From assembly GCF_001548275.1 (NCBI RefSeq), contig NZ_AP014945.1, forward strand, positions 1,590,001 to 1,622,000: a DNA stretch of 32,000 bases, written 5' to 3'. Shown here piece after piece: positions 1,834 through 23,392 of the stretch (position 1 is its first letter; every line of letters begins with the position of its first letter). Both the position numbers and the translations under genes were made by a program. This DNA comes from Caldimicrobium thiodismutans. Lineage in GTDB: Bacteria > Desulfobacterota > Thermodesulfobacteria > Thermodesulfobacteriales > Thermodesulfobacteriaceae. The notes under the pieces are model-generated. The model made no database searches. It worked only from the letters and a program-made list of their open reading frames with translations, and was not told the DNA's origin.

Positions 1834-1861
1834 ATAATAAAGGCTTTTCGGAAAAATACAA
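1834..1861 (-). promoter_or_regulatory. Candidate sigma70-type promoter for the J-domain/lysC/cimA unit (TTGTAT-16-TATTAT)
   Basis: The minus strand reads TTGTAT (1861-1856), a 16-nt spacer, then TATTAT (1839-1834). The ATG at 1821 follows about 12 nt later with no Shine-Dalgarno, suggesting a very short leader. The -35 box sits 5 nt beyond the conserved end of repeat copy A. Confidence 0.35.
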
Positions 1862-1866
1862 GATTT

Positions 1867-2174
1867 CAAATTGCCTCACTAAAAATTTATTTGAAAATTT
1901 ATCGTTGCCTCATATAAAAAATTTTTCAATTTCAATTGAGCAAAGTTCTTAAAACTTTACGGAAAAACTATCTATTTTGCTTTTTTTAAATTCAAAAAAG
2001 GTGGACCTTAAGTCCCTTGGCAAAGCTTATTTCAGAGGAAAGAGTGGGTAAGGAGCTTTGCAGAAAGATAAGGCGATATCAGAAAATGCTTGAGAGAGCA
2101 TATTTAAAGAAAAAAGGAAATATTTTCGGGGAAAAATTGACAATAAAAAGGAGGGGAAGGTAAAATAATTTCCC
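1867..2174 (+). repeat. Intergenic cassette, copy A (about 300 bp, family of three in this window)
   Basis: Shares a left block with copy B (CAAATTGCCTCA..TTATCGTTGCCTCATATAAAAAAT, 24-nt exact run). Shares a right block with copy C (GGGAAAAATTGACAATAAAAAGGA, 24-nt exact run, plus GATATCAGAAAATG). The central part diverges. Confidence 0.85.
2137..2166 (+). promoter_or_regulatory. Candidate sigma70-type promoter at the right end of copy A (TTGACA-18-TAAAAT)
   Basis: Consensus -35 TTGACA at 2137-2142, an 18-nt spacer, then TAAAAT at 2161-2166. It points toward the 3' end of the convergent AMMECR1 gene. No annotated gene lies downstream. Confidence 0.45.
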
Positions 2175-2274
2175 TTTAGGAAATTAAATGAGGCATTACG
2201 GATTTAAATCCATTTTTCTTGGGTTTAGCAAAGGAGAGAACTTGCATGCTTCAGACAGAATTTAATTTCTTTGA

Positions 2275-4173: not shown

Positions 4174-4849
4174 ATCTTCTTGGTTCTCCTGCTATTTCTA
4201 AGATCCGTAGGACCTCTTTGCGGATTTCCTCAAGGAGGCCTTTATCTTCTTCATAGGCAAGTTTAACTTTTTCTCCCTTTAATAAGGCTACCGTTTTCGC
4301 TACAAGCAGACCCACATTAATGGCATTCAAGAGATCCTTATCATCCCAGAGAGAAGTTTTACTTTTATAGGAATAAGCAATTGCCCATGGTGGAATCACC
4401 GCCCCCATAGAGTTAAGGGTTGTGATAAGATAACCACCTGTCATAATAGCTCCGGTGTCAGCACCCACAACAACTGCACCAACCACCTTTCCTTCCATGT
4501 AGCTCGGCTCTCCATAGGCAACCATGTTTTCAAGTGAGGTCATCCGATCAAGGAGATTTTTCATAACCCCAGAGGGAGCAAACCAGTAAATAGGAGTAGC
4601 AAAAATGATTCCCTCTGCCTCATAAATCTTCTGAAGAAGAAATTTTCCATAATCTTCATAGATACAGGGGAATTTGCACTCCGGTCCTTCATTCTGGATG
4701 CATCCAGCACAGGGTTTAATCTCTCCATCATAAAGGGAATACCACTCAGTGTTGGCCTTTAATTTTTCTGCTGCCCTGAGGGCTGAAAAAAGAAGTTGGG
4801 CTGTGCCTCCCTTTTTATGAGGGCTTCCAAGGAGACCAAGAATCTTCAT
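4142..4849 (-). CDS. Iron-sulfur flavoprotein-like / NADPH-dependent FMN reductase (flavodoxin fold)
   Basis: MKILGLLGSPHKKGGT N-terminus (FMN_red type) plus a compact Cys cluster CAGCIQNEGPECKFPC, as in Isf proteins. The 3' end overlaps the nitroreductase start by 32 nt. Confidence 0.7.
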   Translation of the reverse strand: MKILGLLGSPHKKGGTAQLLFSALRAAEKLKANTEWYSLYDGEIKPCAGCIQNEGPECKFPCIYEDYGKFLLQKIYEAEGIIFATPIYWFAPSGVMKNLLDRMTSLENMVAYGEPSYMEGKVVGAVVVGADTGAIMTGGYLITTLNSMGAVIPPWAIAYSYKSKTSLWDDKDLLNAINVGLLVAKTVALLKGEKVKLAYEEDKGLLEEIRKEVLRILEIAGEPRRYVRQTGYLRY

Positions 4850-5748
4850 AGCTCTAAAGCCTCCTTCCAGAACTTGGGAAGGGCAAAGGAGGCCTGGTGG
4901 ATTTCAAAGGTATAATATCTGGTATTACTGAGTTCAATACCTTTGGGAAACTGGGGATTTTTAAAAGGACATTTCATGATAAAGGCATTGTCACTTCCAA
5001 AGGAAGGAACATTAGCCCGATAAATATAAATCTCTTCTTCAGGATAGACCTCTTTATAAATCCTGTAAACACCAGTAAGGATATTTTTCATAGTAAAGGG
5101 AGTTCCGCATTGCTGAACAATGATTCCGGTAGGGCAGATTTTTTTTAATTTGGCATGAAAATCAACTCCAAAGAGGGCATGGGAGAGCTCTTGGGTGGTT
5201 TCCCCGATATCCGGGTCTGTAGAATCAATAATTATGAGATCAAAGGTCTTTTCTTCTTGAAGATATTGGTTAACAATTACATAGGCATCTTCAGTAATAA
5301 GTTTTAATCTTTTGTCTTCAGGATCTTCCGGGAGTAATTCAGGAAAATATTCCCTTACAAGCTTAGGAATTTTTGGATCAATGTCAACAATGATGACTTC
5401 TTGCACAGAGGGATATTTGAGGGCTTCTCTTGCAGCGCCAAAGTCTCCCCCTCCACAGATGAGAACCCTTTTTATGAATCCCTCCGGTGCACTTTGAATG
5501 GGTATGTGCACCAGGGCTTCGTGATAAACAAACTCATCCCTTGAGGTGAACTGAAGGTTGTTATTTATAAAGAGGAGTCTTCCCCAGAATTTATGTTCAA
5601 GAATATATATATTTTGAAGACCTGATTCTCCATAAATAATGCGACTTATGTAGCCAAAGAGATAGTCTTCATTGACATATTCTCCATAGAAAACCTTTAC
5701 TCCTTTACCTTCAGTTTTCATAGCAGGAGACATGATCTCTTTCTTCAT
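4846..5748 (-). CDS. speE: Spermidine synthase-like polyamine aminopropyltransferase
   Basis: VLICGGGDFGAAREALKY (SAM-fold glycine motif), IIIDSTDP, and overall SpeE architecture. Start chosen at the ATG (5748) preceded by GGAGAGG on the minus strand. The ORF track extends to 5790. Confidence 0.75.
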   Translation of the reverse strand: MKKEIMSPAMKTEGKGVKVFYGEYVNEDYLFGYISRIIYGESGLQNIYILEHKFWGRLLFINNNLQFTSRDEFVYHEALVHIPIQSAPEGFIKRVLICGGGDFGAAREALKYPSVQEVIIVDIDPKIPKLVREYFPELLPEDPEDKRLKLITEDAYVIVNQYLQEEKTFDLIIIDSTDPDIGETTQELSHALFGVDFHAKLKKICPTGIIVQQCGTPFTMKNILTGVYRIYKEVYPEEEIYIYRANVPSFGSDNAFIMKCPFKNPQFPKGIELSNTRYYTFEIHQASFALPKFWKEALEL

Positions 5749-5904
5749 AGAACCTCTCCTCTTGAAGGCCTTTGAGTAAAGATTTAACATTAATTTAAAT
5801 CATCTCCCCCTTTTGTCAATCTTTTTGTATGCGTCCATATCTTTTGAGACTCTATAGGATTTTTTCTACTACTTCTGTTGGGGGAAAATGAACCTGTATT
5901 TTGT

Positions 5905-6060
5905 TGGGGCAAACCTATGTGGTTGCCCTCATTTGGAAAATCTATGTGTTTGCCTGTTATATGTTTTTTACATTAATGTAGGGGTTCAAAATCTCGAACC
6001 CCAACAAGGGTTTAAAATTTTAAACCCTTACATTGGGCAGTCACTATGTGTTTGCCCCTC
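5905..6060 (+). repeat. Left arm of imperfect inverted repeats flanking the AAA-ATPase gene
   Basis: Contains GGGGCAAACCTATGTGGTTGCCC and three copies of CTATGTG(G/T)TTGCC (5915, 5942, 6044). Also holds the hairpin GGGGTTCAAAATCTCGAACCCC (5981-6002) and the perfect palindrome GGGTTTAAAATTTTAAACCC (6008-6027). Confidence 0.8.
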
Positions 6061-6132
6061 TTTTAACCTCTCACTTCTCACCTCTTACCACACTTCCTTT
6101 TTTTTAAGGATCTGAACTTATGCTATTAGACC

Positions 6133-7683
6133 TTAATTTAATTTTTCCCAGAAATAGCCCTTGATATTCCTCCCCCCTGAAGAAAATTCAATCCCTATAA
6201 GATAAATCTCTTTGAATGAACCCTCATATTTCTTATGATACCCCTTCTCCTTAAGTTGAGCTAAGGCTTTAGCTTCTGTCTCTTCTCCCTCAACCACCTT
6301 GAACTCAAAAAGATAAACTCTTTCTCTGTATAGCACCGTCAAATCTATCTGCCCCTTATTTGTTATATCCTCAGGTATCACCTCAAGCCCTGACCCACAC
6401 AAAAAGGCATAAAAACAACTTGCATAATACCCCTCATAACGAAAAAGCTCATTCTTCCTGAACCAATCATGGGGTATCCCTGCATAAAGACTCTCAAGAA
6501 CCTTCTTCATCTTCTCAAAATCCCTCTCCCTCACTGCCTCAATCATCTTAAGAGATAGCCTTGGTCTTTCTGAACTGAGCTGAGTAAAATAAGAAAAAAG
6601 AACTCTATTTAAACTAATCTTTACCTCTTTATTCGGATAAGAAAGCTTATAGAGAATTAACCCTTCCTCTTCAATAGTTTCTTTAATGGTCAAATAACCC
6701 ACCTGAAAGAGAAGGTTTTCTGGTTCAATATAGTCAAGGTCAAAAGAGCCAATAAGGTCATCAGTTGCAGTTAGGTCTTCAAGCTCGGGAAGATAAAAAC
6801 GCTTCTCAAGAAGAAGCTTTATAAGAAAACTTGGAGTCCCAGTTTCAAACCAGTAGGGGTGGAATTTTTTTTCCTCTAAATAGAGAAGGACATCAAAGGG
6901 ATTATAGAGAGGCTCTCCAAGCCAGGAATAACCATTATACCAGCATTTAATAAGCTTTAAGTCTTTATCTTGTAGTTCTTCTCCAAAGACCTCTTCAAGC
7001 TCTTCTTGAGTGTATCCGCAGATAGTTGCATACTCCTTGCTTATAGTAATGTCTCTTAACTGATTTAGCCCTGAAAAAAGAGAAACCTTTGAGAATTTGG
7101 AAACTCCCGTTAGGAAAACAAATTTTAAATAAGCATCAAGGGGCTTAAGAACACTATAAAAGTTCTTGAGGACATCTCTTATTGCCTTTGCGGTTTCTCT
7201 ATCCTCAATGCAATCAAGAATGGGTTTATCATACTCATCAACAAGAACTACAACTTTTTGCTTATACTTCTCATAACTTTTAAGAATTAATTCCTCAAAA
7301 CAGCTATCATATTGTGTTTTCTTTGAACAGGAGACTCCAAGGGTTTCTTGATTTTTCTCAAGCTGTTCAAGAATATAAGTTATTAAATGTTCCTCTCCTT
7401 TGAGGGTTCTTCCCCCAAAATCAATATGAATAACAGGATATTTAACACTCCAGTCCCAGTGTTTCTCAAGATAGAGCCCCTGGAAAAGCTCTTTTCTTCC
7501 AAGGAAAGCCTGTTTCAGGGTATCCACAAAAAGGGATTTTCCAAATCTCCTCGGGCGAGAGAGAAAATAATAAGTTCCCTCTTCAACAAGCTTTGCAACA
7601 AAAGGAGTCTTATCCACATAATAATAGGGTTCACTTCTAATCTTTTCAAAGCTTGAAATTCCAATGGGAAGTTTTTTCTCCAT
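6133..7683 (-). CDS. AAA-ATPase-like domain + PD-(D/E)XK nuclease-like C-terminal domain protein (uncharacterised family)
   Basis: 516 aa. The N-terminus LPIGISSFEKIR..YYYVDKT..YFLSRPRRFGKSL matches the predicted AAA-ATPase (PF09820-type) signature. The C-terminus GQIDLTVLYRERVYLFEFKV resembles the D...ExK core of PDDEXK_9-type domains. Confidence 0.8.
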   Translation of the reverse strand: MEKKLPIGISSFEKIRSEPYYYVDKTPFVAKLVEEGTYYFLSRPRRFGKSLFVDTLKQAFLGRKELFQGLYLEKHWDWSVKYPVIHIDFGGRTLKGEEHLITYILEQLEKNQETLGVSCSKKTQYDSCFEELILKSYEKYKQKVVVLVDEYDKPILDCIEDRETAKAIRDVLKNFYSVLKPLDAYLKFVFLTGVSKFSKVSLFSGLNQLRDITISKEYATICGYTQEELEEVFGEELQDKDLKLIKCWYNGYSWLGEPLYNPFDVLLYLEEKKFHPYWFETGTPSFLIKLLLEKRFYLPELEDLTATDDLIGSFDLDYIEPENLLFQVGYLTIKETIEEEGLILYKLSYPNKEVKISLNRVLFSYFTQLSSERPRLSLKMIEAVRERDFEKMKKVLESLYAGIPHDWFRKNELFRYEGYYASCFYAFLCGSGLEVIPEDITNKGQIDLTVLYRERVYLFEFKVVEGEETEAKALAQLKEKGYHKKYEGSFKEIYLIGIEFSSGGRNIKGYFWEKLN

Positions 7684-7723
7684 AGTTTTATTTTAAGGCT
7701 TCTTTTTTGAAAAATCAATGTTA

Positions 7724-7858
7724 GTAGGGGTTCAAGATTTTGAACTCCTACATTTAATCGCAATCAATTTTTATTAATATAGAGGTCAGAGCTGTGGGGG
7801 TTGCCACATTGATGCGAAAGAACACATAACAGGCAAACACAGAGGTTTGCCCCTACCG
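7724..7858 (-). repeat. Right arm of imperfect inverted repeats flanking the AAA-ATPase gene
   Basis: The reverse complement reads GGGGCAAACCTCTGTGTTTGCCTGTTATGTGTTCTTT ... ATGTAGGAGTTCAAAATCTTGAACCCC, matching left-arm blocks in the same order. The ORF track shows the same peptides on opposite strands (VGANLC.C and NVGVQNLEP). Confidence 0.8.
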
Positions 7859-7977
7859 CAATCCATACACAAAATTTAATACCACCGCAGGGGGAAAGAG
7901 GAGAGATTGAGTTTTTAAAACCCAGATATGTGTTAAAATAAAATATCTCGAACCCTTTGAGATCATTGGAGGAGAAA

Positions 7978-10776
7978 ATGGATTGGAAGGATACCCTAAA
8001 TTTACCCAGAACGGATTTTCCCATGAAGGCTAATCTTACAGAAAGAGAGCCAGAGTTTTTGCGCTTTTGGGAGGAAAACTCTATTTATAATAAAATGCTT
8101 GAAAAAAGACAAAAGAGCCCTTCTTTTATTCTGCACGATGGGCCTCCCTATGCTAATGGACACATTCACTTAGGGACAGCCTTGAACAAAATCCTTAAGG
8201 ATATAATTATCAAAAGTAAGACCCTTTTTGGTTTCTATGCTCCCTATGTGCCTGGCTGGGACTGTCATGGATTGCCCATTGAAATCAATGTAGAAAAAGA
8301 GCTTAAAGTGAAAAGAGGAGAGCTTCCTCCTTTAACCATACGGGAGGCCTGCCGCAGGTATGCTGAAAGGTTTATTAATATCCAGAGGGAGGAATTCAAA
8401 AGACTTGGGGTCTTAGGAAAATGGGAGGTTCCTTATCTTACCATGAGTCCTGAATACGAGGCAGTGATTGCCCGAGAATTTTTAAGGTTTCTGGAATCAG
8501 GGCAGGTCTACCGGAGAAAAAAACCTGTTTTTTGGTGCCCCACTTGTGTTACCGCTTTAGCTGAAGCTGAGGTTGAATATGAACCTCATACCTCTCCCTC
8601 CATCTTTGTTAAATTTCCTCTTACTGATGAAACCAAGACTACCCTTGAAAAGAAACTTGGCCTTAAAATAGATAAACCCCTTTACATCCTTATCTGGACA
8701 ACTACTCCCTGGACCTTACCGGCAAATTTAGCCTTAGCCTTTAATCCTGATTTTGATTATATTATAATTGAAATTAAAGGAGAGCTTTTGATCCTTGCTG
8801 AAGGTAGACTCTCAGCCCTTTGTGCTGAGTTAAACTGTAATTTACCTCCCATTTTAGCTCGCTTTAGGCCAGATTTTCTTGAAGGCCAGAAAGCTAAACA
8901 TCCCTTTTACTCAAGAGAGTCTCTTATTATTCTCGCAGATTTTGTTACCCTTGAGACAGGAACGGGAATTGTTCACATTGCCCCAGGGCATGGTGAAGAG
9001 GACTATCTGGTTGGTCTTCGTTATGGCCTTGAGGTTTACACACCTGTTGATGTAGAGGGAAGATTCTATAAGGACCTTCCTTTAGTTGGGGGCCTTAAAC
9101 TTGATGAGGCCAATGAGGTTATTTTGGATGAGTTAAAAAGAAAGGGGCATCTTCTTTACTCTGACAAGATTTCCCATAGTTATCCCCATTGCTGGAGATG
9201 TAAGAAACCCGTTATTTTCAGAGCAGAAGACCAGTGGTTTATCTCTATGACAGCCAGAGATTTAAGAAAAAAGGCCTTAGAGAGCCTGGATAAGGTAAGA
9301 TTTATCCCTGCCTGGGGAAGAAATCGCCTTGAAAGTATGCTTGAGAGAAGGCCAGACTGGTGTATTTCACGGCAGAGGGTCTGGGGGGTTCCCATAACCG
9401 TTTTTAAGTGTAGTAACTGCGGAGAGTATCTGAAAGATTACAGATATTATGAAAAAACTATTGCCCTTTTTGAGGAAAAGGGCTGTGACCTCTGGTTTGA
9501 GACCCCTGTTGAAAGGCTCTTGCCTGAAGGAACAACCTGTCCCGCCTGTGGAGCTTCAACCTTTGAAAAGGAAAAAGATATCTTAGATGTATGGTTTGAC
9601 TCAGGGGTATCTTTTGCAGGGGTCCTTGAAAAAAGAAAGGAACTTAAATTTCCAGCTCAACTTTATCTTGAAGGCTCAGACCAACATCGGGGATGGTTCC
9701 AGAGCTCTCTTCTTTGCTCAGTTGGAACAAGGGATATTCCTCCTTATGAGGCTATACTAACCCATGGCTTTGTAGTAGATGGTAAAGGAAGGAAGATGTC
9801 TAAAAGTTTGGGAAATGTTATACATCCTCAGGATATAATTAAAAAATATGGAGCGGAAATATTACGCCTTTGGGTTTCAGCTGAAGATTATCGGGATGAT
9901 ATAAAAATTTCTCAAGAAATTTTAGATCGTTTAGTGGAGACCTATCGTAAGATAAGAAATACCTGTAGATTTCTGCTTGGGAATCTCTATGACTTCAATC
10001 CCGCTTCCCATCTTATTCCCTTTGACAGGCTCCCCTCCTTTGAAAGATATATTCTCCATAGATTATCAGAAAGCCTTAAGAAGATAAAAAGGGCTTACGA
10101 AAATTTTGAATTTCACTTAGTTACTTATGAGATTCATCGCTTTTGCACAGTTGAGCTTTCTTCTCTCTATATTGATATCAATCGGGATTACCTTTATTGT
10201 GAGACTAAAGATAGTTTTAAAAGAAGGGCTACCCAGACTGTCCTTTATTATGCCCTGGATACCTTGGTAAAGGTTATGGCACCCATTCTTTCCTTTACTG
10301 CTGAAGAGATCTGGCAATTCTTACCCTATCCAAAAGAGGAAAAATCTGTATTTTTGGCAGATTTTCCTGAATTGAACTTTGAGATAACTGAAGGAGAGTT
10401 AAAACATTGGAAAGAGGTCTTGCTTTTGAGAGAGGAATTTCTCAAAGCCCTTGAAATCGCAAGAAAAGATGCCAAGGTTATTGGAAGCTCCTTAGCTGCA
10501 GAGGTTTATTATTTAGCACCCGGGGAGTATAAGGAACTTCTTTCTAATAAGGACTTCTGGGAATATTTTTTAATGGTTGCCAATTTTGAGGAGGGAGAAC
10601 TTTTTAACGAGGGCATAGCCTATACATCAGAAGAGATAAAGGGTTTAAGGATTTTTATTAAGGAGACCACTTATAGAAAATGTGAAAGATGCTGGCAGAG
10701 ACGACCTGAAGTAGGAACCCTCGAAAATCAAGAACTCTGTAAGAGGTGCTTTGAGGTGGTGAATGCTTCTTTCTAA
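7978..10776 (+). CDS. ileS: Isoleucyl-tRNA synthetase (type 1, C-terminal zinc-binding)
   Basis: HIGH motif (PYANGHIHLGTA), KMSKS (KMSKSLGN), editing domain, and C-terminal CERCW...CKRC. Start set at ATG 7978 behind GGAGGAG. The ORF track starts at an upstream TTG (7957). Confidence 0.95.
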   Translation: MDWKDTLNLPRTDFPMKANLTEREPEFLRFWEENSIYNKMLEKRQKSPSFILHDGPPYANGHIHLGTALNKILKDIIIKSKTLFGFYAPYVPGWDCHGLPIEINVEKELKVKRGELPPLTIREACRRYAERFINIQREEFKRLGVLGKWEVPYLTMSPEYEAVIAREFLRFLESGQVYRRKKPVFWCPTCVTALAEAEVEYEPHTSPSIFVKFPLTDETKTTLEKKLGLKIDKPLYILIWTTTPWTLPANLALAFNPDFDYIIIEIKGELLILAEGRLSALCAELNCNLPPILARFRPDFLEGQKAKHPFYSRESLIILADFVTLETGTGIVHIAPGHGEEDYLVGLRYGLEVYTPVDVEGRFYKDLPLVGGLKLDEANEVILDELKRKGHLLYSDKISHSYPHCWRCKKPVIFRAEDQWFISMTARDLRKKALESLDKVRFIPAWGRNRLESMLERRPDWCISRQRVWGVPITVFKCSNCGEYLKDYRYYEKTIALFEEKGCDLWFETPVERLLPEGTTCPACGASTFEKEKDILDVWFDSGVSFAGVLEKRKELKFPAQLYLEGSDQHRGWFQSSLLCSVGTRDIPPYEAILTHGFVVDGKGRKMSKSLGNVIHPQDIIKKYGAEILRLWVSAEDYRDDIKISQEILDRLVETYRKIRNTCRFLLGNLYDFNPASHLIPFDRLPSFERYILHRLSESLKKIKRAYENFEFHLVTYEIHRFCTVELSSLYIDINRDYLYCETKDSFKRRATQTVLYYALDTLVKVMAPILSFTAEEIWQFLPYPKEEKSVFLADFPELNFEITEGELKHWKEVLLLREEFLKALEIARKDAKVIGSSLAAEVYYLAPGEYKELLSNKDFWEYFLMVANFEEGELFNEGIAYTSEEIKGLRIFIKETTYRKCERCWQRRPEVGTLENQELCKRCFEVVNASF

Positions 10777-11227: not shown

Positions 11228-13100
11228 ACCTCTATTTCGCTTGCTCTTTAAGACAAGAGCAGAAGATGTTTGGGCTCTTCTTGAGGATCTTCTTCTTAAA
11301 CATTTTGAAAAGAAAAATATTTTTCTTTTTGAGGCTCAACCTGAAAAGATTTATCATCTTAATGAAATCATACATCAGTTAAAGGATATATTCCAGAAGG
11401 AGCTAACTTCTGCTCCGCCACCTTATGTGTTTTTTCTATCCAAGAAGAATCAGCCCCCTCCCCAGAGCTATCTCTTAAGGCCTGGTAAGATATATTTTAC
11501 TTCTGATCTTAAAAAGGATCTTCAAGATGCCCTTTCAGAAATTAAGCTTTTTTTTAAGATTGAGGGCTTAAGGGAAGATCTTTTAGAACTGGTTTTACCA
11601 GCAACCTCTGAACCCAATTTGATCTTACCTTACAAAGAGATCTTTTTTAGTCCAAAGGATCAAAAATGTTTTTTCTGTAGAACCTATCTTCATGAAAGCC
11701 ATAATTGTCCAGGTTTAGAGGTTATTGATATTTATAGTTCCTATAGCAAACTTCTAAATTATTCTCTAAGAGAACTATCTGAAAAAATTAAGGCTAACCT
11801 TTTAACAGAGGAACCTCAAGATGAGATTTTATCTCTTTTTTTCAGCCGAAATTTTTATCTTTTTCCCTCTTTTTTGAGGGTTGTTTTTTATCTTTATGGG
11901 GAAATTGATAATTTTTCCATGTTAGGACTTAACTTTTCTTTACCTGTAAAAGGTGGAGAGCTCTCTTTGGCTCTTGAAGATCTTATTCATAGACGCTTTG
12001 AACAGGCTGAAAGAAGATTTAAAGCCATTGAAGAGGAGGATTTCAGAAAAGAACTCGGGCTATCACAGATAGAGTTTTTTAAGGGTGATTTTAATCGGGC
12101 CCTCTACTATTTAGAAAGTGCTTTAAGTATGGTGAATACCCCTTTTTTGAAGGGTTTTATTTATTTTTATAAAGGATATATCTATCATTATCTTGGTGAT
12201 CCCTTTAATGCGGAAGAAAATTATAAATTATCCCTGAAGGAGGATTCAAGTTTCTTTCCCTCCTTTTATTATTTGAATCTTCTTATTTATGAGAGAGAGG
12301 AGCTGGTTGAGAAAATTTTTCCCTTTTTCCAGCACCCCTATGTTATTTATCTTTCCTTTCTTGAACCTGTTTTTATAAAGCATCAAAAGGTTTTAGAGGA
12401 ATATTTAGAAAAGGCTATGGATAGAATTAGAGAAGAAACAGTTGAAAGACTCAAAGAGGCTGAAGATAAGTTTCATAAAATCAAAGACATTATGCTTGAG
12501 GAAGAGATCAGTGAAATTAATGAAAAACTTAGGAAAATAAGAAAAGAGGCCTATGAGGGAGGAATTGCTTTAGTTGAAAAGGCAGGAAAGCGGGCTATGG
12601 AATTAGCTCTGGAACTCAATGGATACATTTTTTCAAAACTTAAAAAATATCAGAAAGAACTTGCTTCTTACAAAGATCGCTATCAGATTTTGGTTGAGTT
12701 CTGGAATAAATACCCCTATAAGGCAGAAGATGTCTATTTTGGCCAAAGATTAAAGAGCTCTTATGAGATAATGGATAAACTTAGCAAGTTGATGAAACGC
12801 TCGGAGATAGCTAAGGAACTAAAATTTATTGGTAAAGAAATAACAAAACTCAAACAGCAATTAGAAGATCTGGGAAAGTTAAAGCCTATGCTTGAAAAAA
12901 AGTGGAAATTTAGAAAAAAACTTGTCAAATTTATAAGGAATTTTTCTTTAGCTGAAGCTGGGCTACTTTTAATTTATATAATTCCTATGTTTTATCAAAA
13001 TTTAAATCTTTTGGGTCCTTTTTTGAGTTTACCTTATTTTTTCCTCTTTTCTTTTTTACTTTTTTTGATTGTCTTAATCTTGGTTCAATTTGAAGATTGA
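11202..13100 (+). CDS. Hypothetical protein: CCHC-like knuckle, TPR-like region, long coiled coil, C-terminal membrane anchor
   Basis: 632 aa. Contains CFFCRTYLHESHNC, TPR-like repeats (ALYYLESAL..YKGYIYHYLGDPFNAEENYKLSL), a K/E-rich heptad region, and a hydrophobic C-terminal tail. Overlaps lspA by 26 nt and is followed immediately by pabBC. Confidence 0.6.
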   Translation: MYLRIIENKPLFRLLFKTRAEDVWALLEDLLLKHFEKKNIFLFEAQPEKIYHLNEIIHQLKDIFQKELTSAPPPYVFFLSKKNQPPPQSYLLRPGKIYFTSDLKKDLQDALSEIKLFFKIEGLREDLLELVLPATSEPNLILPYKEIFFSPKDQKCFFCRTYLHESHNCPGLEVIDIYSSYSKLLNYSLRELSEKIKANLLTEEPQDEILSLFFSRNFYLFPSFLRVVFYLYGEIDNFSMLGLNFSLPVKGGELSLALEDLIHRRFEQAERRFKAIEEEDFRKELGLSQIEFFKGDFNRALYYLESALSMVNTPFLKGFIYFYKGYIYHYLGDPFNAEENYKLSLKEDSSFFPSFYYLNLLIYEREELVEKIFPFFQHPYVIYLSFLEPVFIKHQKVLEEYLEKAMDRIREETVERLKEAEDKFHKIKDIMLEEEISEINEKLRKIRKEAYEGGIALVEKAGKRAMELALELNGYIFSKLKKYQKELASYKDRYQILVEFWNKYPYKAEDVYFGQRLKSSYEIMDKLSKLMKRSEIAKELKFIGKEITKLKQQLEDLGKLKPMLEKKWKFRKKLVKFIRNFSLAEAGLLLIYIIPMFYQNLNLLGPFLSLPYFFLFSFLLFLIVLILVQFED

Positions 13101-16196: not shown

Positions 16197-16553
16197 TGGT
16201 GGAGGCGGCGGGAATTGAACCCGCGTCCGAAGATAGTTCAGATTAAACCACTACAGGCTTAGCCTGTGGAGGAATCTCGTAGAGAGCTCGTCACAGGCAC
16301 CGAAGCCCTCTACCAGGCAAGAGGTATCTTGGAAATTCCTGTCTTGCCACCAGGAATCCCCAGAGCCTTCCTTGGTCACGCCCCTTGAGGCCGGAAGGCA
16401 AAGCACTCAAGGAACGAGGCTGCACTTAATTAAGCAGCCTGAGCGTAAGCGTATTCGTTGGCAATTGTGTTTTTGCACCCTTTTTAACGTGGCGAGTGCG
16501 ACCACGGCCTGCGATTTAACCCTACCTATCCCCGTCGAGCCCTTTTCGCCCCC
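16197..16553 (-). ncRNA. ssrA: tmRNA (SsrA), one-piece, CCA-encoded
   Basis: The minus strand begins GGGGGCGAAAAGGGCTCGACGGGG and ends GGACGCGGGTTCAATTCCCGCCGCCTCCACCA. The acceptor stem has a G3:U pair. The tag reading frame GCC AAC GAA TAC GCT TAC GCT CAG GCT GCT TAA (16462-16430) encodes ANEYAYAQAA. Confidence 0.95.
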
Positions 16554-16573: not shown

Positions 16574-16603
16574 TTAATATAAAACCTTTAGGTAAAAATT
16601 CAA
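16574..16603 (-). promoter_or_regulatory. Candidate promoter for ssrA (TTGAAT-18-TATTAA)
   Basis: The minus strand reads TTGAAT (16603-16598), an 18-nt spacer, then TATTAA (16579-16574), about 20 nt upstream of the mature tmRNA 5' end. The -35 box sits 5 nt beyond the conserved end of repeat copy B. Confidence 0.3.
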
Positions 16604-16608
16604 GCTCT

Positions 16609-16890
16609 CAAATTGCCTCATTAAAAATCTATTTGAAATTTTATCGTTGCCTCATATAAAAAATCTCAGCTCCTCTCTTGAACCTTCACGAAAAAACTAT
16701 CTATTTCGCCCCTCTTAAAATTACAAGCTTAGTTCTTTCGCAAAGCTTATTTTAAAGGAAAGAGGGCTGGAAAAGTAAAGGAGCTTTAAAGAAAGATAAG
16801 GAGATATCAGAAAATGTTTGAAAGAGCATACTTAGAAAAAAAGTATTTATTCCCAGGAAAAATTGACAGGAAAAAAGAGGGGGTAAAAAT
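16609..16890 (+). repeat. Intergenic cassette, copy B
   Basis: Shares exact runs of 37 nt (CATATAAAAAATCTCAGCTCCTCTCTTGAACCTTCAC) and 35 nt (TTTCGCCCCTCTTAAAATTACAAGCTTAGTTCTTT) with the reverse complement of copy C. Its left block is shared with copy A. Confidence 0.85.
16863..16890 (+). promoter_or_regulatory. Candidate sigma70-type -35 (TTGACA) at the right end of copy B, facing fliK
   Basis: TTGACA at 16863-16868, homologous to the box in copies A and C. The -10 is less clear (GTAAAAAT at 16883-16890, short spacer). Confidence 0.3.
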
Positions 16891-17051
16891 GAGCATAAGT
16901 TCAGATCCTTACAAGAAAAAGGAAGGGTTGATCTTTCATGAGAATCATTTGAAAGACATACATTTCCAGGGGAAATAGAAAATTTTTCCCAGAAAGGAAA
17001 ATTTTTCCAGTCCAATTCCTGAGAAAGCTTGATTTTTCTTATTTTTTCGAT

Positions 17052-17107: not shown

Positions 17108-18628
17108 ATGAAGGTGATAAATAATCTTTTTTCACTTAGTCCTGAAGGCCAAATTCCTGGATATGGTTCAATGCAAGAAGGCCTGTTTCTTCAGGATTTT
17201 TTAATCCTTTTATTTGCTTATTTAAATCAAGGTGAGCCTACTCTATCAACCAATCCAAATCTTACTAAAGAGGTCTCTCTAAGCCTAAAAAACAACGATT
17301 CCATAACTGACAAATTGCCATCTCTCTCTAATACCCAGCAATTTTTCCTTAAAGATATTGAGAATTCAATATCTAATCATCTTACCCAATTACCCCTTCC
17401 TGATTTTGTCTTTAATACTTCTGGTGATCTAAAAAATTCATCTCAATTAATTAAAAAATTTACTCTAAATGAAGAATGGAAATATTTTGGAGATGAATTT
17501 TCCAATCTTTCATTATACATAGCCTTTACCATGATATTGCTTGAGAGATTTTTCAGTTATGATTCTTATAAGTTAAATACTAATCAGGAAAGTCAGGGAT
17601 CTCCAATGAATAATTTTCCTGAAAAAGGGTTTTTATTAAGCACTTTAAATTTTGATTCCCATCAAATTCAAGATCAAGTTAAAGAGGTGCTTACTTCTAT
17701 AGAGAGAAATATTAGACAAATTGATACAGAAAAAATAGAAAACTTTTTTGAAACTTTTAGTTCTTTAAATAAACTATCAGGTGAGACCCAAGACTTTTTA
17801 AAAAGCTATTTTGAGACACTAAGGGCTGAGATAAAAGAAGGGTATAACCTGCATGAAAATTTAAATCTTACAAAGATTAAAGATAGTTTTTCTCAGCTTT
17901 CAGATAAAGCAAAGGAGGAGATAAAAGGTCTTATTCAGCAGGCAAAGGAGGAGGTAAAAGAGGTTATCCTTCAGGAGAAAGGAATAGGTAGCAACCCACA
18001 TGAGGTATCTTTGCAGAGGTTTTGGTTATCAGGGGATGGGAAGCCTCTTCTTTTAAAGGTAAAAACTTTTTCTGTTAAGGAAGATTTTTCATCTGATTCT
18101 AAACAGCAGGTTTTAATTCAGAATCCAGTGGATTTTTATTTAAAGGGAAAGGAGGTCAACAGCCAGGCAGAGGCTTTTTTCCAGGAAAACAGGGTATTGT
18201 CACCTAAGGTGCAGGCTGGAGAGATTCATCACTTTGTAAGGGAATTAACTATTGAGATAGTGCCTTCCGGGGAAAGAAGGGCAATTGTTCAGCTTGAGCC
18301 ACCTGAACTTGGAAAGATGGAACTTGAAGTCAAGGTGCAGAATGGAGAGGTTGAGGTGCATGCCCGTGTAGAAAAACTTGAGACCCTCTCTCATCTTCAG
18401 CAAGATTTTTCCCAGATTAAGACCCAACTTGAGGATCTGGGCTTAAGGCTTAAGGATTTCCAGATTTCCCTCGGGCTTTCTCCAGAGGGGAAAAATTTTG
18501 GTAATGGTGAGGAAAAGGGTAATCAGAGAAAGGGTAATAAATTCGGTGAGGGGGTTATTACTCAGGTTGAGGGTGGAGAGGACAAAAGTCCTCTTTATCA
18601 TCAGGGAAGATTATATCGCATAGTTTAA
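17108..18628 (+). CDS. fliK: Flagellar hook-length control protein
   Basis: 506 aa with a low-complexity N-terminal part. The C-terminal Flg_hook-type domain reads IVQLEPPELGKMELEVKVQNGEVEVHARVEKLETLSHLQQDFSQIKTQLEDLGLRL. RBS GAGGTG. Confidence 0.85.
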   Translation: MKVINNLFSLSPEGQIPGYGSMQEGLFLQDFLILLFAYLNQGEPTLSTNPNLTKEVSLSLKNNDSITDKLPSLSNTQQFFLKDIENSISNHLTQLPLPDFVFNTSGDLKNSSQLIKKFTLNEEWKYFGDEFSNLSLYIAFTMILLERFFSYDSYKLNTNQESQGSPMNNFPEKGFLLSTLNFDSHQIQDQVKEVLTSIERNIRQIDTEKIENFFETFSSLNKLSGETQDFLKSYFETLRAEIKEGYNLHENLNLTKIKDSFSQLSDKAKEEIKGLIQQAKEEVKEVILQEKGIGSNPHEVSLQRFWLSGDGKPLLLKVKTFSVKEDFSSDSKQQVLIQNPVDFYLKGKEVNSQAEAFFQENRVLSPKVQAGEIHHFVRELTIEIVPSGERRAIVQLEPPELGKMELEVKVQNGEVEVHARVEKLETLSHLQQDFSQIKTQLEDLGLRLKDFQISLGLSPEGKNFGNGEEKGNQRKGNKFGEGVITQVEGGEDKSPLYHQGRLYRIV

Positions 18629-18648
18629 GAAGAGGAGGAGGTAAGAAA

Positions 18649-19311
18649 ATGGCGGTTATAAATAACATTGATGAAAAGACAGGACAGCCAGCTAATCTTT
18701 CAAGGATCCCTAAGAAAGTGCTTGATAAAGAGGCCTTTATGCAGCTTTTTATCACCCAGCTTCAGTATCAGGACCCAATGAAACCCATTGAGAATCACGA
18801 AATGGCTTTACAACTGGCAGCCTTCAATCAGGTGGATCAACTTATGAATCTAAATGACAAGCTTTCTCAAATGGTGGATTTATATAAAGCTAATGAGTAT
18901 ACCCTTTTTGCTAATCTTGTTGGGAAAGAAGTTAAGATTGAAGGTAATACAGTAAGAGTGGAAAATGGGAAATTTCTTGGTGCAGAATTTGAGCTTTCTA
19001 ATCCAGCTAATACTGCCCTTGTTACCATAAGGAATGCCCAGGGCCAGATCATAAAGACTATGCCCCTTTACAATCTCCCACAAGGCATAAATAGGGTTGA
19101 CTGGGATGGAACTGACGATAGAGGTAATCCAGTGCCAGATGGAAATTATAAAATTTCTATAACTATTGGAACGGGAGATAATGCTCAGAGTGTAACGCCA
19201 GTTGTTATAGCGAGGATTACAGGAGCTACTCTTGGAGACAAACCTACGCTTAAGGTAAACGATATTGAGACTATTAGTCTTGATAAAATAAAGGAGATTT
19301 TAGGGAGGTAA
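18649..19311 (+). CDS. flgD: Flagellar hook capping/assembly protein
   Basis: LDKEAFMQLFITQLQYQDPMKP N-terminal FlgD motif, plus a C-terminal Ig/FLgD-like domain (VDWDGTDDRGNPVPDGNYKISI). RBS GGAGGAGG. Confidence 0.9.
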   Translation: MAVINNIDEKTGQPANLSRIPKKVLDKEAFMQLFITQLQYQDPMKPIENHEMALQLAAFNQVDQLMNLNDKLSQMVDLYKANEYTLFANLVGKEVKIEGNTVRVENGKFLGAEFELSNPANTALVTIRNAQGQIIKTMPLYNLPQGINRVDWDGTDDRGNPVPDGNYKISITIGTGDNAQSVTPVVIARITGATLGDKPTLKVNDIETISLDKIKEILGR

Positions 19312-19316
19312 GTCCT

Positions 19317-20702
19317 ATGAGTCTCTTTGGCAATATGTATATTGGATACTCTGGGCTTTATACAGATACCATTGCTACAAGGGTATCTGCTGACAATATT
19401 GCTAACTTGAATACTATTGCTTTTAAGGGATCTCGGACTGAGTTTGCCAGTAGGCTCGTAAGGGAAAGCGAAGTTTTTGGAAGGGAAAGGGGGATTGGAT
19501 CAGCGGTCAAGGATATTCGCTCTATTTTTACCCAGGGACCAATTCAAAGCACAGATGTCCCCACAGACCTTGCTATATCTGGGAAAGGTTTCTTCGTATT
19601 AGCGGATAAAAAGGGCAATTTCTATTATACCAGGGATGGACAATTTTTTATTAATGATGCAGATAAGGATCATTTTACCTTACAAAATGCCCTTGGGATG
19701 AGCCTTCTTGGAGCAGACCCCACTGCAACCTCTGCAGATCTTGCAACTCTTAAACCTTATATTATTCCCAAGGTCATGTCCTCCAAGGCAACATCTACCC
19801 TTTCTGTCGAACTTATTCTGGATGCAAGAACCCCTGTAAATAGCCAGAGTTTACTTGACAAATATGATGCTTCTTTAAGACCTGATAAACCTTTAGAAGA
19901 GGGAGCATATAACTGGGTCTTTGACTGGTATATCTATGATCAAACCGGAGAGATGATACCAGTAAAACTTTATGTAGATAGAGGAGACTCTGCTAATACT
20001 TATGAAGTGCTTTTTGCCCTTGCTGATCCAGCTAAGGATGGAAGGGGAGATGGAAAGATGAAAGGAGCCTTTTTATACGGCACCTTAACCTTTGGTGGAG
20101 GGGGTGAAATAGTTTCAGCAGATTTTTCTCAGGTCTCCCTTGATGGCACTTTAACTCCCCTTGATCTAACAGCCCTTGGAAAGCCAAAAACCCCTTTAAA
20201 CATAAATGGAAGAACCCAGGAAATAACCCTTGATCTTGGTTTTACTGTGAATCCAGATGCTTCTATAACCCGGGAAAGGGGCTCTATTAAAATGATAGCC
20301 AATGCCTTTACCCAGCTTGGATTTATCCAAGATGGTTATCCTATGGGAATTTTTGAAAGAATTGAAGTTATAAATGAAGAGGGTCTTATTAAGGCCTGGT
20401 ATACCAACCAGAAAGAAATTGCGGTTGCAAGGATTTTTCTTGCAGATTTTTCAGGTTATGAAGATTCCCTGGAAAAATTAGGAAATGGGCTTTTTAGAAC
20501 CAGGCCTGGTGTTACCACCTATTTTTTTGCTCCAAGTTCTGCTGAAAGGGGAAGAATAGTATCAGGTGCCCTTGAGGGCTCAAATGTGGATCTTGCAAAT
20601 GAGATGGTGAATCTAATTATGCTTCAAAGAAGTTTTCAGAGTAATTCCCGGGTGATAACAACTTCAGATCAGATGCTTGAAGACTTTTTGAGACAGAGGT
20701 AA
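19317..20702 (+). CDS. flgE: Flagellar hook protein, short paralog (461 aa)
   Basis: N-terminal rod/hook motif (ADNIANLNTIAFKGSR), GKGFF..YTRDGQF, and a C-terminal LEGSNVDLANEMVNLIMLQRSFQSNSRVITTSDQML domain. Confidence 0.85.
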   Translation: MSLFGNMYIGYSGLYTDTIATRVSADNIANLNTIAFKGSRTEFASRLVRESEVFGRERGIGSAVKDIRSIFTQGPIQSTDVPTDLAISGKGFFVLADKKGNFYYTRDGQFFINDADKDHFTLQNALGMSLLGADPTATSADLATLKPYIIPKVMSSKATSTLSVELILDARTPVNSQSLLDKYDASLRPDKPLEEGAYNWVFDWYIYDQTGEMIPVKLYVDRGDSANTYEVLFALADPAKDGRGDGKMKGAFLYGTLTFGGGGEIVSADFSQVSLDGTLTPLDLTALGKPKTPLNINGRTQEITLDLGFTVNPDASITRERGSIKMIANAFTQLGFIQDGYPMGIFERIEVINEEGLIKAWYTNQKEIAVARIFLADFSGYEDSLEKLGNGLFRTRPGVTTYFFAPSSAERGRIVSGALEGSNVDLANEMVNLIMLQRSFQSNSRVITTSDQMLEDFLRQR

Positions 20703-20761
20703 AACCAGTGATCTTAAAAAAAATTAAAAAATAACCGAAAATAAAAAAAGGGGGTGATTTT

Positions 20762-23039: not shown

Positions 23040-23095
23040 CCTTGCATAGGTTTAATATTCTTACAAAAAAAGAAGGGTGGTTAGTTTGGTAAAAA

Positions 23096-23392
23096 GGAAG
23101 TTATTTTATCTCACCTATCCTTTTTATTGTCAATTTTTCCCTGAAAATAATTTCCTTTTTTCTTTAAATATACTCTCTGAAGCATTTTCTGATATCTCCT
23201 TATCTTTATGTAAAGCTCCTTTACCTTTCCACTCGCTCTTTCCTTTGAAATAAGCTTTGCTAAAGAACTAAGCTTGTAATTTTAAGAGGGGCGAAAAAGA
23301 TAGTTTTTTTTGTGAAGGTTCAAGAGAGGAGCTGAGATTTTTTATATGGGGCAACGATAAAATTTTGAATAGATTTTTAATGAGGCAATTTG
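23096..23392 (-). repeat. Intergenic cassette, copy C (inverted relative to A and B)
   Basis: The reverse complement aligns end to end with copy B (37-nt and 35-nt exact runs) and with the right block of copy A (24-nt exact run including TTGACA). Confidence 0.85.
23103..23134 (-). promoter_or_regulatory. Candidate sigma70-type promoter at the right end of copy C, pointing into the flgE 3' end
   Basis: Minus-strand TTGACA (23134-23129). Candidate -10 boxes are GATAAA (18-nt spacer) or TAAAAT (20-nt spacer). No annotated gene lies downstream on that strand. Confidence 0.3.

Follow-up and report, generated by a model that had tools for sequence, protein, structure and literature searches.

A DUF1703 gene flanked by mirrored GTAG-type hairpin clusters at the ileS-speE junction of Caldimicrobium thiodismutans

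The locus and the systems closest to it

The DNA considered here is a 32-kb window of the Caldimicrobium thiodismutans genome (contig NZ_AP014945.1), in which a gene of the DUF1703 family lies between ileS and a speE-like gene and is framed by mirrored, hairpin-forming sequence blocks. All positions are those of this window, and L-numbers are labels of comparison loci from other genomes or contigs. DUF1703 is a widespread family for which, to our knowledge, there is no known function or experimental phenotype. The first description of the family, based on fold recognition, identified an AAA+ module combined with a PD-(D/E)XK nuclease, with an unusual Walker A motif, RPRRFGKS (Knizewski et al. 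2007, PMC1913061). Lineage-specific expansions with recombination between paralogues have been reported, Cardinium cCpun carrying 25 copies (PMC6387759). The gene family, its expansions and recombination, the GTAG-tagged repetitive extragenic palindromic (REP) sequences and the miniature inverted-repeat transposable elements (MITEs) that are discussed below are all known already.

Classical REPs are specific to a species or genus and flank the gene of a REP-associated tyrosine transposase (RAYT). The GTAG-tagged REPs are a described superfamily that forms mosaic clusters and opposite-orientation dimers, includes intragenic copies and has been proposed to depend on RAYTs (PMC3733652). These REPs, the bacterial interspersed mosaic elements (BIMEs) and the RAYT (TnpA-REP) transposases are treated by Nunvar 2010 (PMC2817692), Di Nocera 2013 (PMC3733652) and Bertels & Rainey 2011 (PMC3116915). 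A REPIN consists of two inverted REPs with a short spacer and is mobilised as a unit (PMC3337134).

The locus is best explained as a layered insertion and not as a single transposon with inverted-repeat ends, an explanation to which we assign a probability of about 0.6. A compact cassette, comprising a sigma-70-like promoter close to the ATG and the DUF1703 open reading frame (ORF) up to its stop codon, would have been inserted between ileS and speE. The right-hand REP cluster would be part of a leader of variable make-up, found upstream of the promoter in most of the close copies, and the left-hand cluster would sit inside a separate 300-bp MITE, inserted 8 nt downstream of the stop codon. 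The mirror symmetry would then be the chance opposite orientation of two REP clusters, neither of them an element end. Gene conversion between paralogues would diversify the allele, and the protein, an Orc1/Cdc6- or STAND-like (signal transduction ATPases with numerous domains) ATPase with an intact PD-(D/E)XK nuclease, may act as an immune or selfish sensor/cleaver. Inward-facing modules of a hairpin and a T-rich tail may insulate the nuclease gene from read-through transcription. The anatomy of the locus, its boundaries, the junction without the gene, the mosaic allele and the REP nature of the hairpins were observed directly, while leaderless expression, insulation, an immune role and the sequence in which the insertions took place are inferred.

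The unit common to the gene copies

The DUF1703 gene (6133..7683, minus strand) encodes 516 aa, with an AAA+ ATPase of the Orc1/Cdc6-like kind followed by a middle domain and, at the C-terminus, a PD-(D/E)XK nuclease. Eight copies from seven independent contexts were compared: the window and L123 (one locus in two genomes), L121, L122, L124, L146, L147 and L144. Among all 28 pairs of these copies, contiguous homology starts 35 to 41 nt upstream of the ATG in 23; of the other five, one is the syntenic pair, and four have homology out to between -75 and -199. At the other end, homology stops between 13 nt before and 5 nt past the stop codon in nearly all pairs, the exceptions being the syntenic pair and L146/L147 (+142/+150). 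The 5′ limit of the sequence common to all paralogues is that of a promoter segment, designated 'UP' (7684..7724, minus), with TTGATT and TAAAAT separated by 17 nt (promoter-like site at 7718..7690, minus), and the segment from -41 to -1 is conserved in 8/8 copies. By these alignments, the unit common to all copies is a compact putative cassette that runs from promoter to stop codon. The mRNA is probably leaderless, because 6 nt separate the end of the -10 box from the ATG and a Shine-Dalgarno sequence is lacking.

In a related Caldimicrobium (L151/L152; SpeE 81% identical), ileS and speE are divergent and directly adjacent, with a 152-bp spacer, so that about 2.1 kb is extra in the window. 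This is the junction without the gene that the earlier note on this DNA had proposed as a place to look for an empty site. The missing insert corresponds to 5827..7905, with approximate boundaries and no strand assigned. On the speE side, homology between the window and L151 resumes at about 5826, at the speE promoter ATTGACAAAAGGGG. On the ileS side, BLAST homology resumes at 7968, at the 5′ end of ileS, and a short match to 'tattttaacacat' near 7915-7925, found by eye, suggests an insert end near 7905. Both boundaries (~5826 and ~7905) lie 50-80 nt beyond the outer flanking blocks, with a precision limited by the divergence of the relative. No target-site duplication was seen in the compared junction sequences, again with a diverged relative. 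The gene is, as judged from this comparison, an insertion at this site. The closest sister species (L148, SpeE 92%) is rearranged in the region upstream of speE and carries there a different GTAG-type REP dimer, a REPIN-like arrangement of another GTAG REP at 6740-6830 (GGTAGCCGCAACCTTTAGGTTGCG ... CGCAGGCTAAAGCCTGCGGCTACC). Since this dimer lies upstream of speE, different lineages have elements of the REP type drawn to the same intergenic position.

In C. thiodismutans (1.81-Mb contig), a homology search found at least five more paralogues, with 70-89% identity and one of them truncated; paralogue loci of this genome are THC_0114, THC_0502, THC_0717, THC_0970 and THC_1258. Copies with 84-91% identity are present in another C. 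thiodismutans genome (GCA_017880035.1), in Thermodesulfovibrio sp. TK110 (L144; 84% identical), a member of another phylum, Nitrospirota, and in a JGI metagenome. By homology, the gene belongs to a family that is multi-copy and moves horizontally. Defence-type contexts make up four of the seven, and the suggestion in the earlier note of a defence-type gene agrees with the location of several copies in defence islands. The neighbours include an MmeI-like restriction-modification gene, HepT/MNT and a PLD-helicase (L124), DruA, HerA-NurA and PDDEXK_10 (L147), and a SAVED-domain protein (L122). In L144 (region 5500-6000), the copy directly follows the last repeat of an array of clustered regularly interspaced short palindromic repeats (CRISPR), within a type III / RT-Cas1 / Csx1 locus. 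A perfect consensus GTAG hairpin lies there between the CRISPR array and the gene, and an 8-nt duplication, CTTTGTAG, is found at the junction.

The allele itself is a mosaic. The window gene (6133-7683) and its syntenic counterpart in L123 (6001-7551) show 57-66% identity over nt 901-1200 (codons 301-400), with flanks that are 99-100% identical. In this segment, the window allele is 99-100% identical to those of the non-syntenic loci L121, L124 and L147, and the L123 allele is 95-96% identical to that of L146. Over a further variable block (nt 201-600), the copies group in another way. The mosaic has the form expected of recent segmental gene conversion among paralogues, to which we attribute it. 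Because paralogues exchange internal segments, the allele at the ileS-speE site is hypervariable within one species. Codons 301-400 would form part of a helix/beta-hairpin middle, the positional counterpart of the winged-helix DNA-binding domain of Cdc6/Orc1, in a model of modest confidence.

The assignment of the protein to the AAA-ATPase/PDDEXK family, made in the earlier note, holds. Both PF09820 (AAA-ATPase_like; E 1.5e-71, 240.8 bits against a cut-off of 26.1, residues 6-203) and PF08011 (PDDEXK_9; E 1.2e-20, 73.9 bits against a cut-off of 25.5, residues 416-508) match, in the same N-to-C order as in DUF1703. In an alignment of 25 homologues, Walker A (R43-S50, RPRRFGKS) and Walker B (D149-E150-Y151-D152) are invariant, as are the catalytic positions of nuclease motifs I-III (E417, D447 and E460-F-K462). 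The AlphaFold model of the 516-aa protein (pLDDT 74) shows the a-bbb-a-bb secondary structure at the C-terminus, and its best folds in the PDB are those of Cdc6/Orc1, 2qby (E 6e-5) and 1fnn (E 9e-5). The N-terminal two thirds of the model also resemble Apaf-1/CED-4; for the C-terminal part, the resemblance is to PD-(D/E)XK domains, those of CinB and TSEN. A sequence search of the PDB gave no relative of the protein. The DUF1703 gene is the only gene of the cassette, and it has no Pfam or NCBIfam match to a transposase or recombinase. The protein is most likely a nucleoside triphosphate-dependent sensor and cleaver of nucleic acids, of an immunity or selfish type.

The flanking hairpin clusters

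The same blocks are present in mirrored order on the two flanks, as the earlier note had claimed, with one copy per flank and none elsewhere in the window. The outer block, A (GGGGCAAACCTMTGTGKTTGCC), lies at 5906-5927 (plus) and 7832-7853 (minus), and the inner block, B (GTAGGGGTTCAAAATCTCGAACCCC), at 5978-6002 (plus) and 7727-7751 (minus, two mismatches). Shuffled sequences predict 0 copies of either. A repeat finder returned the inverted pairs 5903-5927 / 7832-7856 (25 nt, 88%), 5935-5969 / 7817-7851 (35 nt, 86%) and 5975-6005 / 7724-7754 (31 nt, 90%). The blocks are inverted, but they do not make up continuous imperfect inverted repeats of ~140 bp as had been proposed: they are two short blocks, separated by 50 nt in one arm and 80 nt in the other, and the sequence between them is unrelated. 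Nor is the outer block joined throughout to the TGTTAT(A/G)TGTT tail, which on the left side follows the second copy of A rather than the first. Compared with shuffled sequences, the left arm folds with a z-score of -4.9 and the right arm with -4.8.

In the right arm, hairpin B (7724..7751, minus; fold z -5.4) is a GTAG-tagged REP that matches a cross-phylum consensus and directly abuts the promoter segment. Hairpin A (7821..7857, minus; GTAG-GGGCAAAC-CTCTGT-GTTTGCC) is followed by the T-rich tail TGTTATGTGTT and is terminator-like, directed at the gene; a terminator-like site at 7852..7831 (minus) falls on it. The left arm is more elaborate. It begins with A (5906-5927), A' (5933-5954) and the tail TGTTATATGTT (together 5906..5965, plus), and continues with B (5975-6005), B' (6004-6032) and the A-like A'' (6033-6058) (together 5975..6058, plus), so that A', B' and A'' are additional to the mirrored blocks. 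Hairpin B' is a variant of B with compensatory C>T / G>A changes, and the two-hairpin junction of B and B' has a fold z-score of -4.7. The repeat finder also recovered the triple CTATGTG(G/T)TTGCC (CTATGTGKTTGCC) seen earlier in the left arm, at 5915-5927, 5942-5954 and 6044-6056. The GTAG tag is carried by B on both flanks (GTAG-GGGTTC...GAACCCC) and by A of the right arm, A of the left arm having GTTG. The partial hairpin that had been noticed outside the right arm is a half copy of B (AATATCTCGAACCC; 7942..7955, plus; 13/14 matches) in the ileS leader region. The same sequence is found in L123, and it lies in a stretch without BLAST alignment to L151. A search of the window with Rfam at gathering thresholds gave only the transfer-messenger RNA (tmRNA), elsewhere, and the arms gave only chance-level matches at a relaxed E-value. 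A direct repeat (5867-5887 / 7877-7897, 71%) was considered as part of the arms and, being in the wrong orientation, was treated as chance. For an inversion switch between the arms, which was also considered, there is no evidence, the window and L123 being collinear.

The right arm corresponds to a leader that varies between copies. L124, L147 and window/L123 have in common the order A, TGTTATGTGTT, GCATCAATGT, and B or B'. In L121 a degenerate B alone is left, and in L144 a B that fits the consensus perfectly (-119..-92) precedes an unrelated spacer. L122 has no upstream A/B cluster, and L146 has an A cluster with tail in the opposite orientation and no B. Hairpin B is found upstream of the promoter in 5/7 independent contexts, at distances to the cassette of 0, ~50 or ~75-80 nt. 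Among the seven contexts, no downstream arm was found at any but this locus, and the next gene begins 10 nt after the stop codon in L124 and 29 nt after it in L121. Two distant homologues (67-75% identity) have upstream palindromic repeats of another widespread type, gattgcttcgtcgct...ctcgcaatgac (L125, ~940-1190; L135, ~830-1080).

The left arm lies between two halves of another element. The left-end half of a MITE (IRL side; 6069..6125, minus) starts 8 nt past the stop codon and matches L122 7739-7795 (86%) and L121 11804-11844 (90%). The right-end half (IRR side; 5825..5876, minus), whose outer end is the speE-side insertion boundary, matches L122 7793-7842 (94%) and L121 12057-12098 (93%). 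L122 has the two halves contiguous and so represents the empty state of the left-arm site, and in L121 the C-terminal remnant of an rve-type (rve_3) transposase lies between them. The termini are imperfect inverted repeats, TGCATAAGTTCAGATCC and TGTATAAGTCCATATC, with 17/25 matching positions by manual alignment, and copies of the MITE halves occur elsewhere, in L121, L122, L123, L147 and at 16895-16925 of the window (left end). The segment 5825-6125 is accordingly described here as a MITE of ~300 bp derived from an insertion sequence (IS), and the left arm (5906-6058), because it is located between both MITE halves, would either have been carried by the MITE as cargo or have been inserted into it. 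For 5825-6125, no target-site duplication was definable, and a full-length parent IS was not seen in the stretches examined. The left arm and the IS end show collinearity with the leader upstream of the paralogue in L147, which extends to the outer flank 'aacctgtatttt'. An origin of the left arm as leader of a convergent paralogue, since deleted, was rejected in spite of this collinearity, as the promoter segment is absent and both MITE ends bracket the arm.

The left arm is also unstable. L123, from the same species, is 99-100% identical to the window in the flanks over 13 kb and lacks a 102-bp segment (5955..6056, no strand assigned) that contains B and B' and lies between 13-bp direct repeats, CTATGTGTTTGCC (5942-5954 and 6044-6056). 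Since B and B' are absent from L123, half of the mirror symmetry is dispensable and unstable.

The nature of the hairpins was examined by scanning a degenerate B pattern over one genome per species, with ~4 chance matches estimated. Hairpin B (GTAGGGGTTCAAAATYTTGAACCCCTAC) was found in at least 127 copies at at least 120 loci in many phyla, the hosts including Ignavibacteria, Bacteroidota, Deferribacteres, Hyphomicrobiales, Planctomycetes, Zixibacteria and lineages of the candidate phyla radiation (CPR), among others. Among the matches listed, the consensus is tGTA-GGGGTTC-AAAAT(T/C)TT-GAACCCC-TACa, with a 5′ GTA in 95 and a 3′ TAC in 91 of the 127 copies listed, and there are often several per genome (8 contigs of CAZSWR01 and 6 of CAXHAT01). 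Among the loci listed, the only recurrent neighbour of B is a RAYT-like Y1/HUH gene (named for its histidine-hydrophobic-histidine motif), and the hairpin lies inside it and in frame, encoding VGVQNFEPL (VGVQN[F/L]EPL) right after the HUH motif MPNHVHGI. Examples are L004 6434-7156, L119 5009-5587, L063 1151-1738 and L117 263-919. NCBIfam REP_Tyr_transpos (NF047646) matches RAYT-like genes at E 6e-14 and 1e-13, below the curated cut-off. Homologues of these genes number 6378 at E <= 1e-10 and are labelled RayT or IS200-like in the sources; a VGVQN[FL]EP-type or sister peptide (e.g., VGAKNFSP) is present in 86 among the best 120 of the 6378. Literature searches by sequence and by peptide found no report of the hairpin sequence or of the RAYT peptide. 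From their sequences, the arms can be assigned to BIME-like clusters of GTAG REPs of two types, A and B.

Within the Caldimicrobium lineage, ~176 kb was sampled (~113 kb of C. thiodismutans-type DNA and 63 kb of sister-species DNA). All A/B blocks in this sample lie within 300 bp of DUF1703 copies, with the single exception of L147 12202-12251. These stretches contain few GTAG hairpins of any type, and none of the Caldimicrobium stretches examined showed a RAYT gene. GTAG hairpins of a third type, GTAGCACAGACATTCTTGTCTGTG, are present at two unrelated Caldimicrobium-type loci (L124 2936-2959 and L147 12054-12077), and in L147 the hairpin adjoins the stand-alone A and tail at 12202-12251. Scanning metagenomes for the A block with its tail (TRTGTTTGCCTGTTATRTGTT) gave 0 matches, and the homologues from a metagenome protein scan were at most 75% identical and had no A/B blocks. 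In other phyla, a DUF1703 protein was found beside hairpin B at 0/120 of the loci listed. The earlier note had considered that the arms might be generic hairpins present at many loci without the gene; this is the case in other phyla but not within the Caldimicrobium lineage. As for the gene and the arms travelling together, the blocks in this lineage are found almost only near the gene, but a downstream arm occurs at this locus only.

The window contains further repeats away from the gene. A repeat of ~310 bp occurs three times, at 1837-2177 (plus), 16579-16882 (plus) and 23093-23392 (minus), with a mean column identity of 76%, and a promoter-like GGAAAAATTGACA...AAAAAGGAGGGG forms the end of every copy. 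Copies 2 and 3, inverted and 87-95% complementary, bracket the flagellar hook genes fliK-flgD-flgE-flgE (17108-23002). Copy 2 abuts the tmRNA gene (16197-16553, minus; tag peptide ANEYAYAQAA; Rfam 191 bits) and a fragment of an IS left end. These surroundings of the tmRNA gene, with the 310-bp repeat and the IS left end at 16895-16925, suggest a repeat or integration hotspot. At the DUF1703 locus itself, the neighbours are those of a position between housekeeping genes, as previously noted: the speE-like gene (4846-5790, minus) on one side and ileS (7957-10776, plus), followed by lspA, on the other.

Competing explanations and comparison with known systems

Several observations count against the layered insertion preferred here. 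Of the marks of a mechanism that would move the cassette, namely a target-site duplication, a recombinase or an att-like motif, none was found at the cassette junctions. PADLOC returned no family at E <= 0.01 for the 516-aa protein, which leaves the immune role to domain logic and neighbourhood. The lineage-wide co-location of A/B blocks with DUF1703 is unlike freely dispersing REPs and hints at a functional or mechanistic tie, where the layered reading assumes common descent, and the perfect B that lies 92-119 nt upstream of the Thermodesulfovibrio copy, next to an unrelated spacer, is poorly explained by descent. One rival is the model put forward in the earlier note, in which the A/B arms are the terminal inverted repeats (TIRs) of a non-autonomous transposon or selfish cassette, moved as arm-gene-arm by a transposase acting in trans. 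The arms are indeed significantly similar and inverted, the entire block is missing at the orthologous site of the relative, and the gene is multi-copy in variable contexts; a mobile or selfish cassette is retained to the extent that there is an insertion at this site and a horizontally moving family. The arms do not delimit the moving unit, however. A downstream arm is found nowhere else, the next genes in L121 and L124 following the stop codon by 29 and 10 nt, and homology between paralogues ends at the stop codon and mostly starts at about -40, inside the inner edge of the right arm. In addition, the left arm is nested in another element and half deleted in the nearly identical L123, the insertion boundaries lie outside the arms (~5826, the MITE end, and ~7905), and the compared junctions show no target-site duplication. 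A TIR-bounded cassette is very improbable on these grounds, and that model is largely refuted.

The hairpins could instead be involved in movement as REPs, either because a RAYT (HUH Y1) carried the gene between REPs in an IS200/IS605-like manner, or because the cassette integrates beside REPs. This is unlikely, although the hairpins are tightly co-located with DUF1703 copies in the lineage and B is upstream in 5/7 contexts, including the Thermodesulfovibrio transfer with its unrelated spacer. B of the window exactly abuts the cassette boundary, REP-like repeats of another kind lie upstream of the distant homologues L125 and L135 as well, there is a link between the hairpin family and RAYT genes, and IS elements that target REPs are documented, e.g., ISPpu9 in REPs (PMC8450116). 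The gene is, however, near none of the 120 B loci listed from other phyla, the distance between B and the cassette varies (0, ~50 and ~75-80 nt), L122 and L146 have no upstream B, and the Caldimicrobium stretches examined hold no RAYT gene; common descent of the leader with later indels explains the Caldimicrobium copies. A role of the arms in cis, regulatory or protective, would be unrelated to mobility: the inward terminators would insulate a toxic nuclease gene, B would be an operator or structural element at the -35 box, and the symmetry would be functional. A of the right arm and its tail resemble an intrinsic terminator directed at the gene, A' of the left arm and the tail TGTTATATGTTTTTT point inwards from the other side, the orientation of A and tail is kept upstream of L124, L147 and L123, and in most copies B is placed at the promoter or close to it; a function as RNA or terminator elements has been proposed for GTAG REPs (PMC3733652). 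On the other hand, A and tail are oppositely oriented in L146, L121, L124 and L144 have no downstream insulator, L123 kept the gene though its left cluster lost B and B', and terminator-like matches are not significantly enriched (4 against 2.2 +/- 1.6 expected). As the full explanation of the symmetry such a role seems a minor, though conceivable, possibility, and a regulatory or insulator role is compatible with a layered insertion. Rather doubtful, finally, is the idea of a self-contained, horizontally moving immune or selfish cassette whose spread and diversification depend on REPs, through capture by an HUH (RAYT-type) enzyme or through homing to the REP as the DNA ligand of its own protein. 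If true, it would link two orphans, the function of DUF1703 and REP/RAYT biology, and would explain why a cross-phylum REP lies upstream of the gene even after transfer between phyla.

What appears to be new at this locus are the exact limits of the cassette, the within-species shuffling of alleles at a syntenic site and the lineage-specific association of REPs with the cassette, together with the finding that one GTAG palindrome is conserved across phyla and lies in frame in a large RAYT clade. A false lead is removed, the transposon-like ends being REP hairpin clusters and the real common unit being the cassette of promoter and ORF. DUF1703 gains testable traits, i.e., a presence/absence polymorphism at a defined site, allele shuffling in a putative recognition domain, and recurrent placement beside GTAG hairpins and defence genes. 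The 28-nt GTAG palindrome, conserved across phyla and in frame in a RAYT clade, may be of wider interest for REP/RAYT systems.

Compared with the described DUF1703 genes, the present one has the same Pfam pair, Walker A and B and nuclease motifs, and it is multi-copy with recombination between paralogues, as in Cardinium. The protein itself has no distinguishing feature. The bounded unit of promoter and ORF, the allele mosaicism at a syntenic site, the leader of REP hairpins and the frequent defence-island neighbours are new here. The STAND/AAA+ NTPase-nuclease immune proteins (NACHT-Mrr fusions and Avs-type sensors) share with it an Orc1/Cdc6- or Apaf-1-like ATPase and a PD-(D/E)XK effector, as well as a hypervariable middle region and defence-island neighbours. 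They differ in that there is no PADLOC match here, and 516 aa is much smaller than typical STAND sensors.

With IS-derived MITEs, which are internally deleted insertion sequences of the DDE/rve type, the segment 5825-6125 has in common its imperfect TIRs, its recurrence and the rve_3 remnant in L121. It differs in covering the left flank only and in having an internal REP cluster as cargo. The arms resemble REPs and BIMEs in being short palindromes with a G+C-rich stem of 7-8 bp and a 5′ GTAG, in their mosaic arrangement, in occurring in both orientations, in their extragenic location and in their indels; type B is, in addition, linked to RAYT-like genes in other genomes. Unlike classical REPs, B is nearly unchanged across many phyla, and the hairpin is inside the gene of the RAYT clade and does not flank it. 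Whereas REPs are dispersed, the blocks are seen here, in the Caldimicrobium lineage, almost only beside one gene family. The pair of arms shares with a REPIN two inverted, REP-containing arms, but the spacer is 1.7 kb and bears a gene, the pair occurs at no other sampled locus, and B and B' of the left arm form a direct pair.

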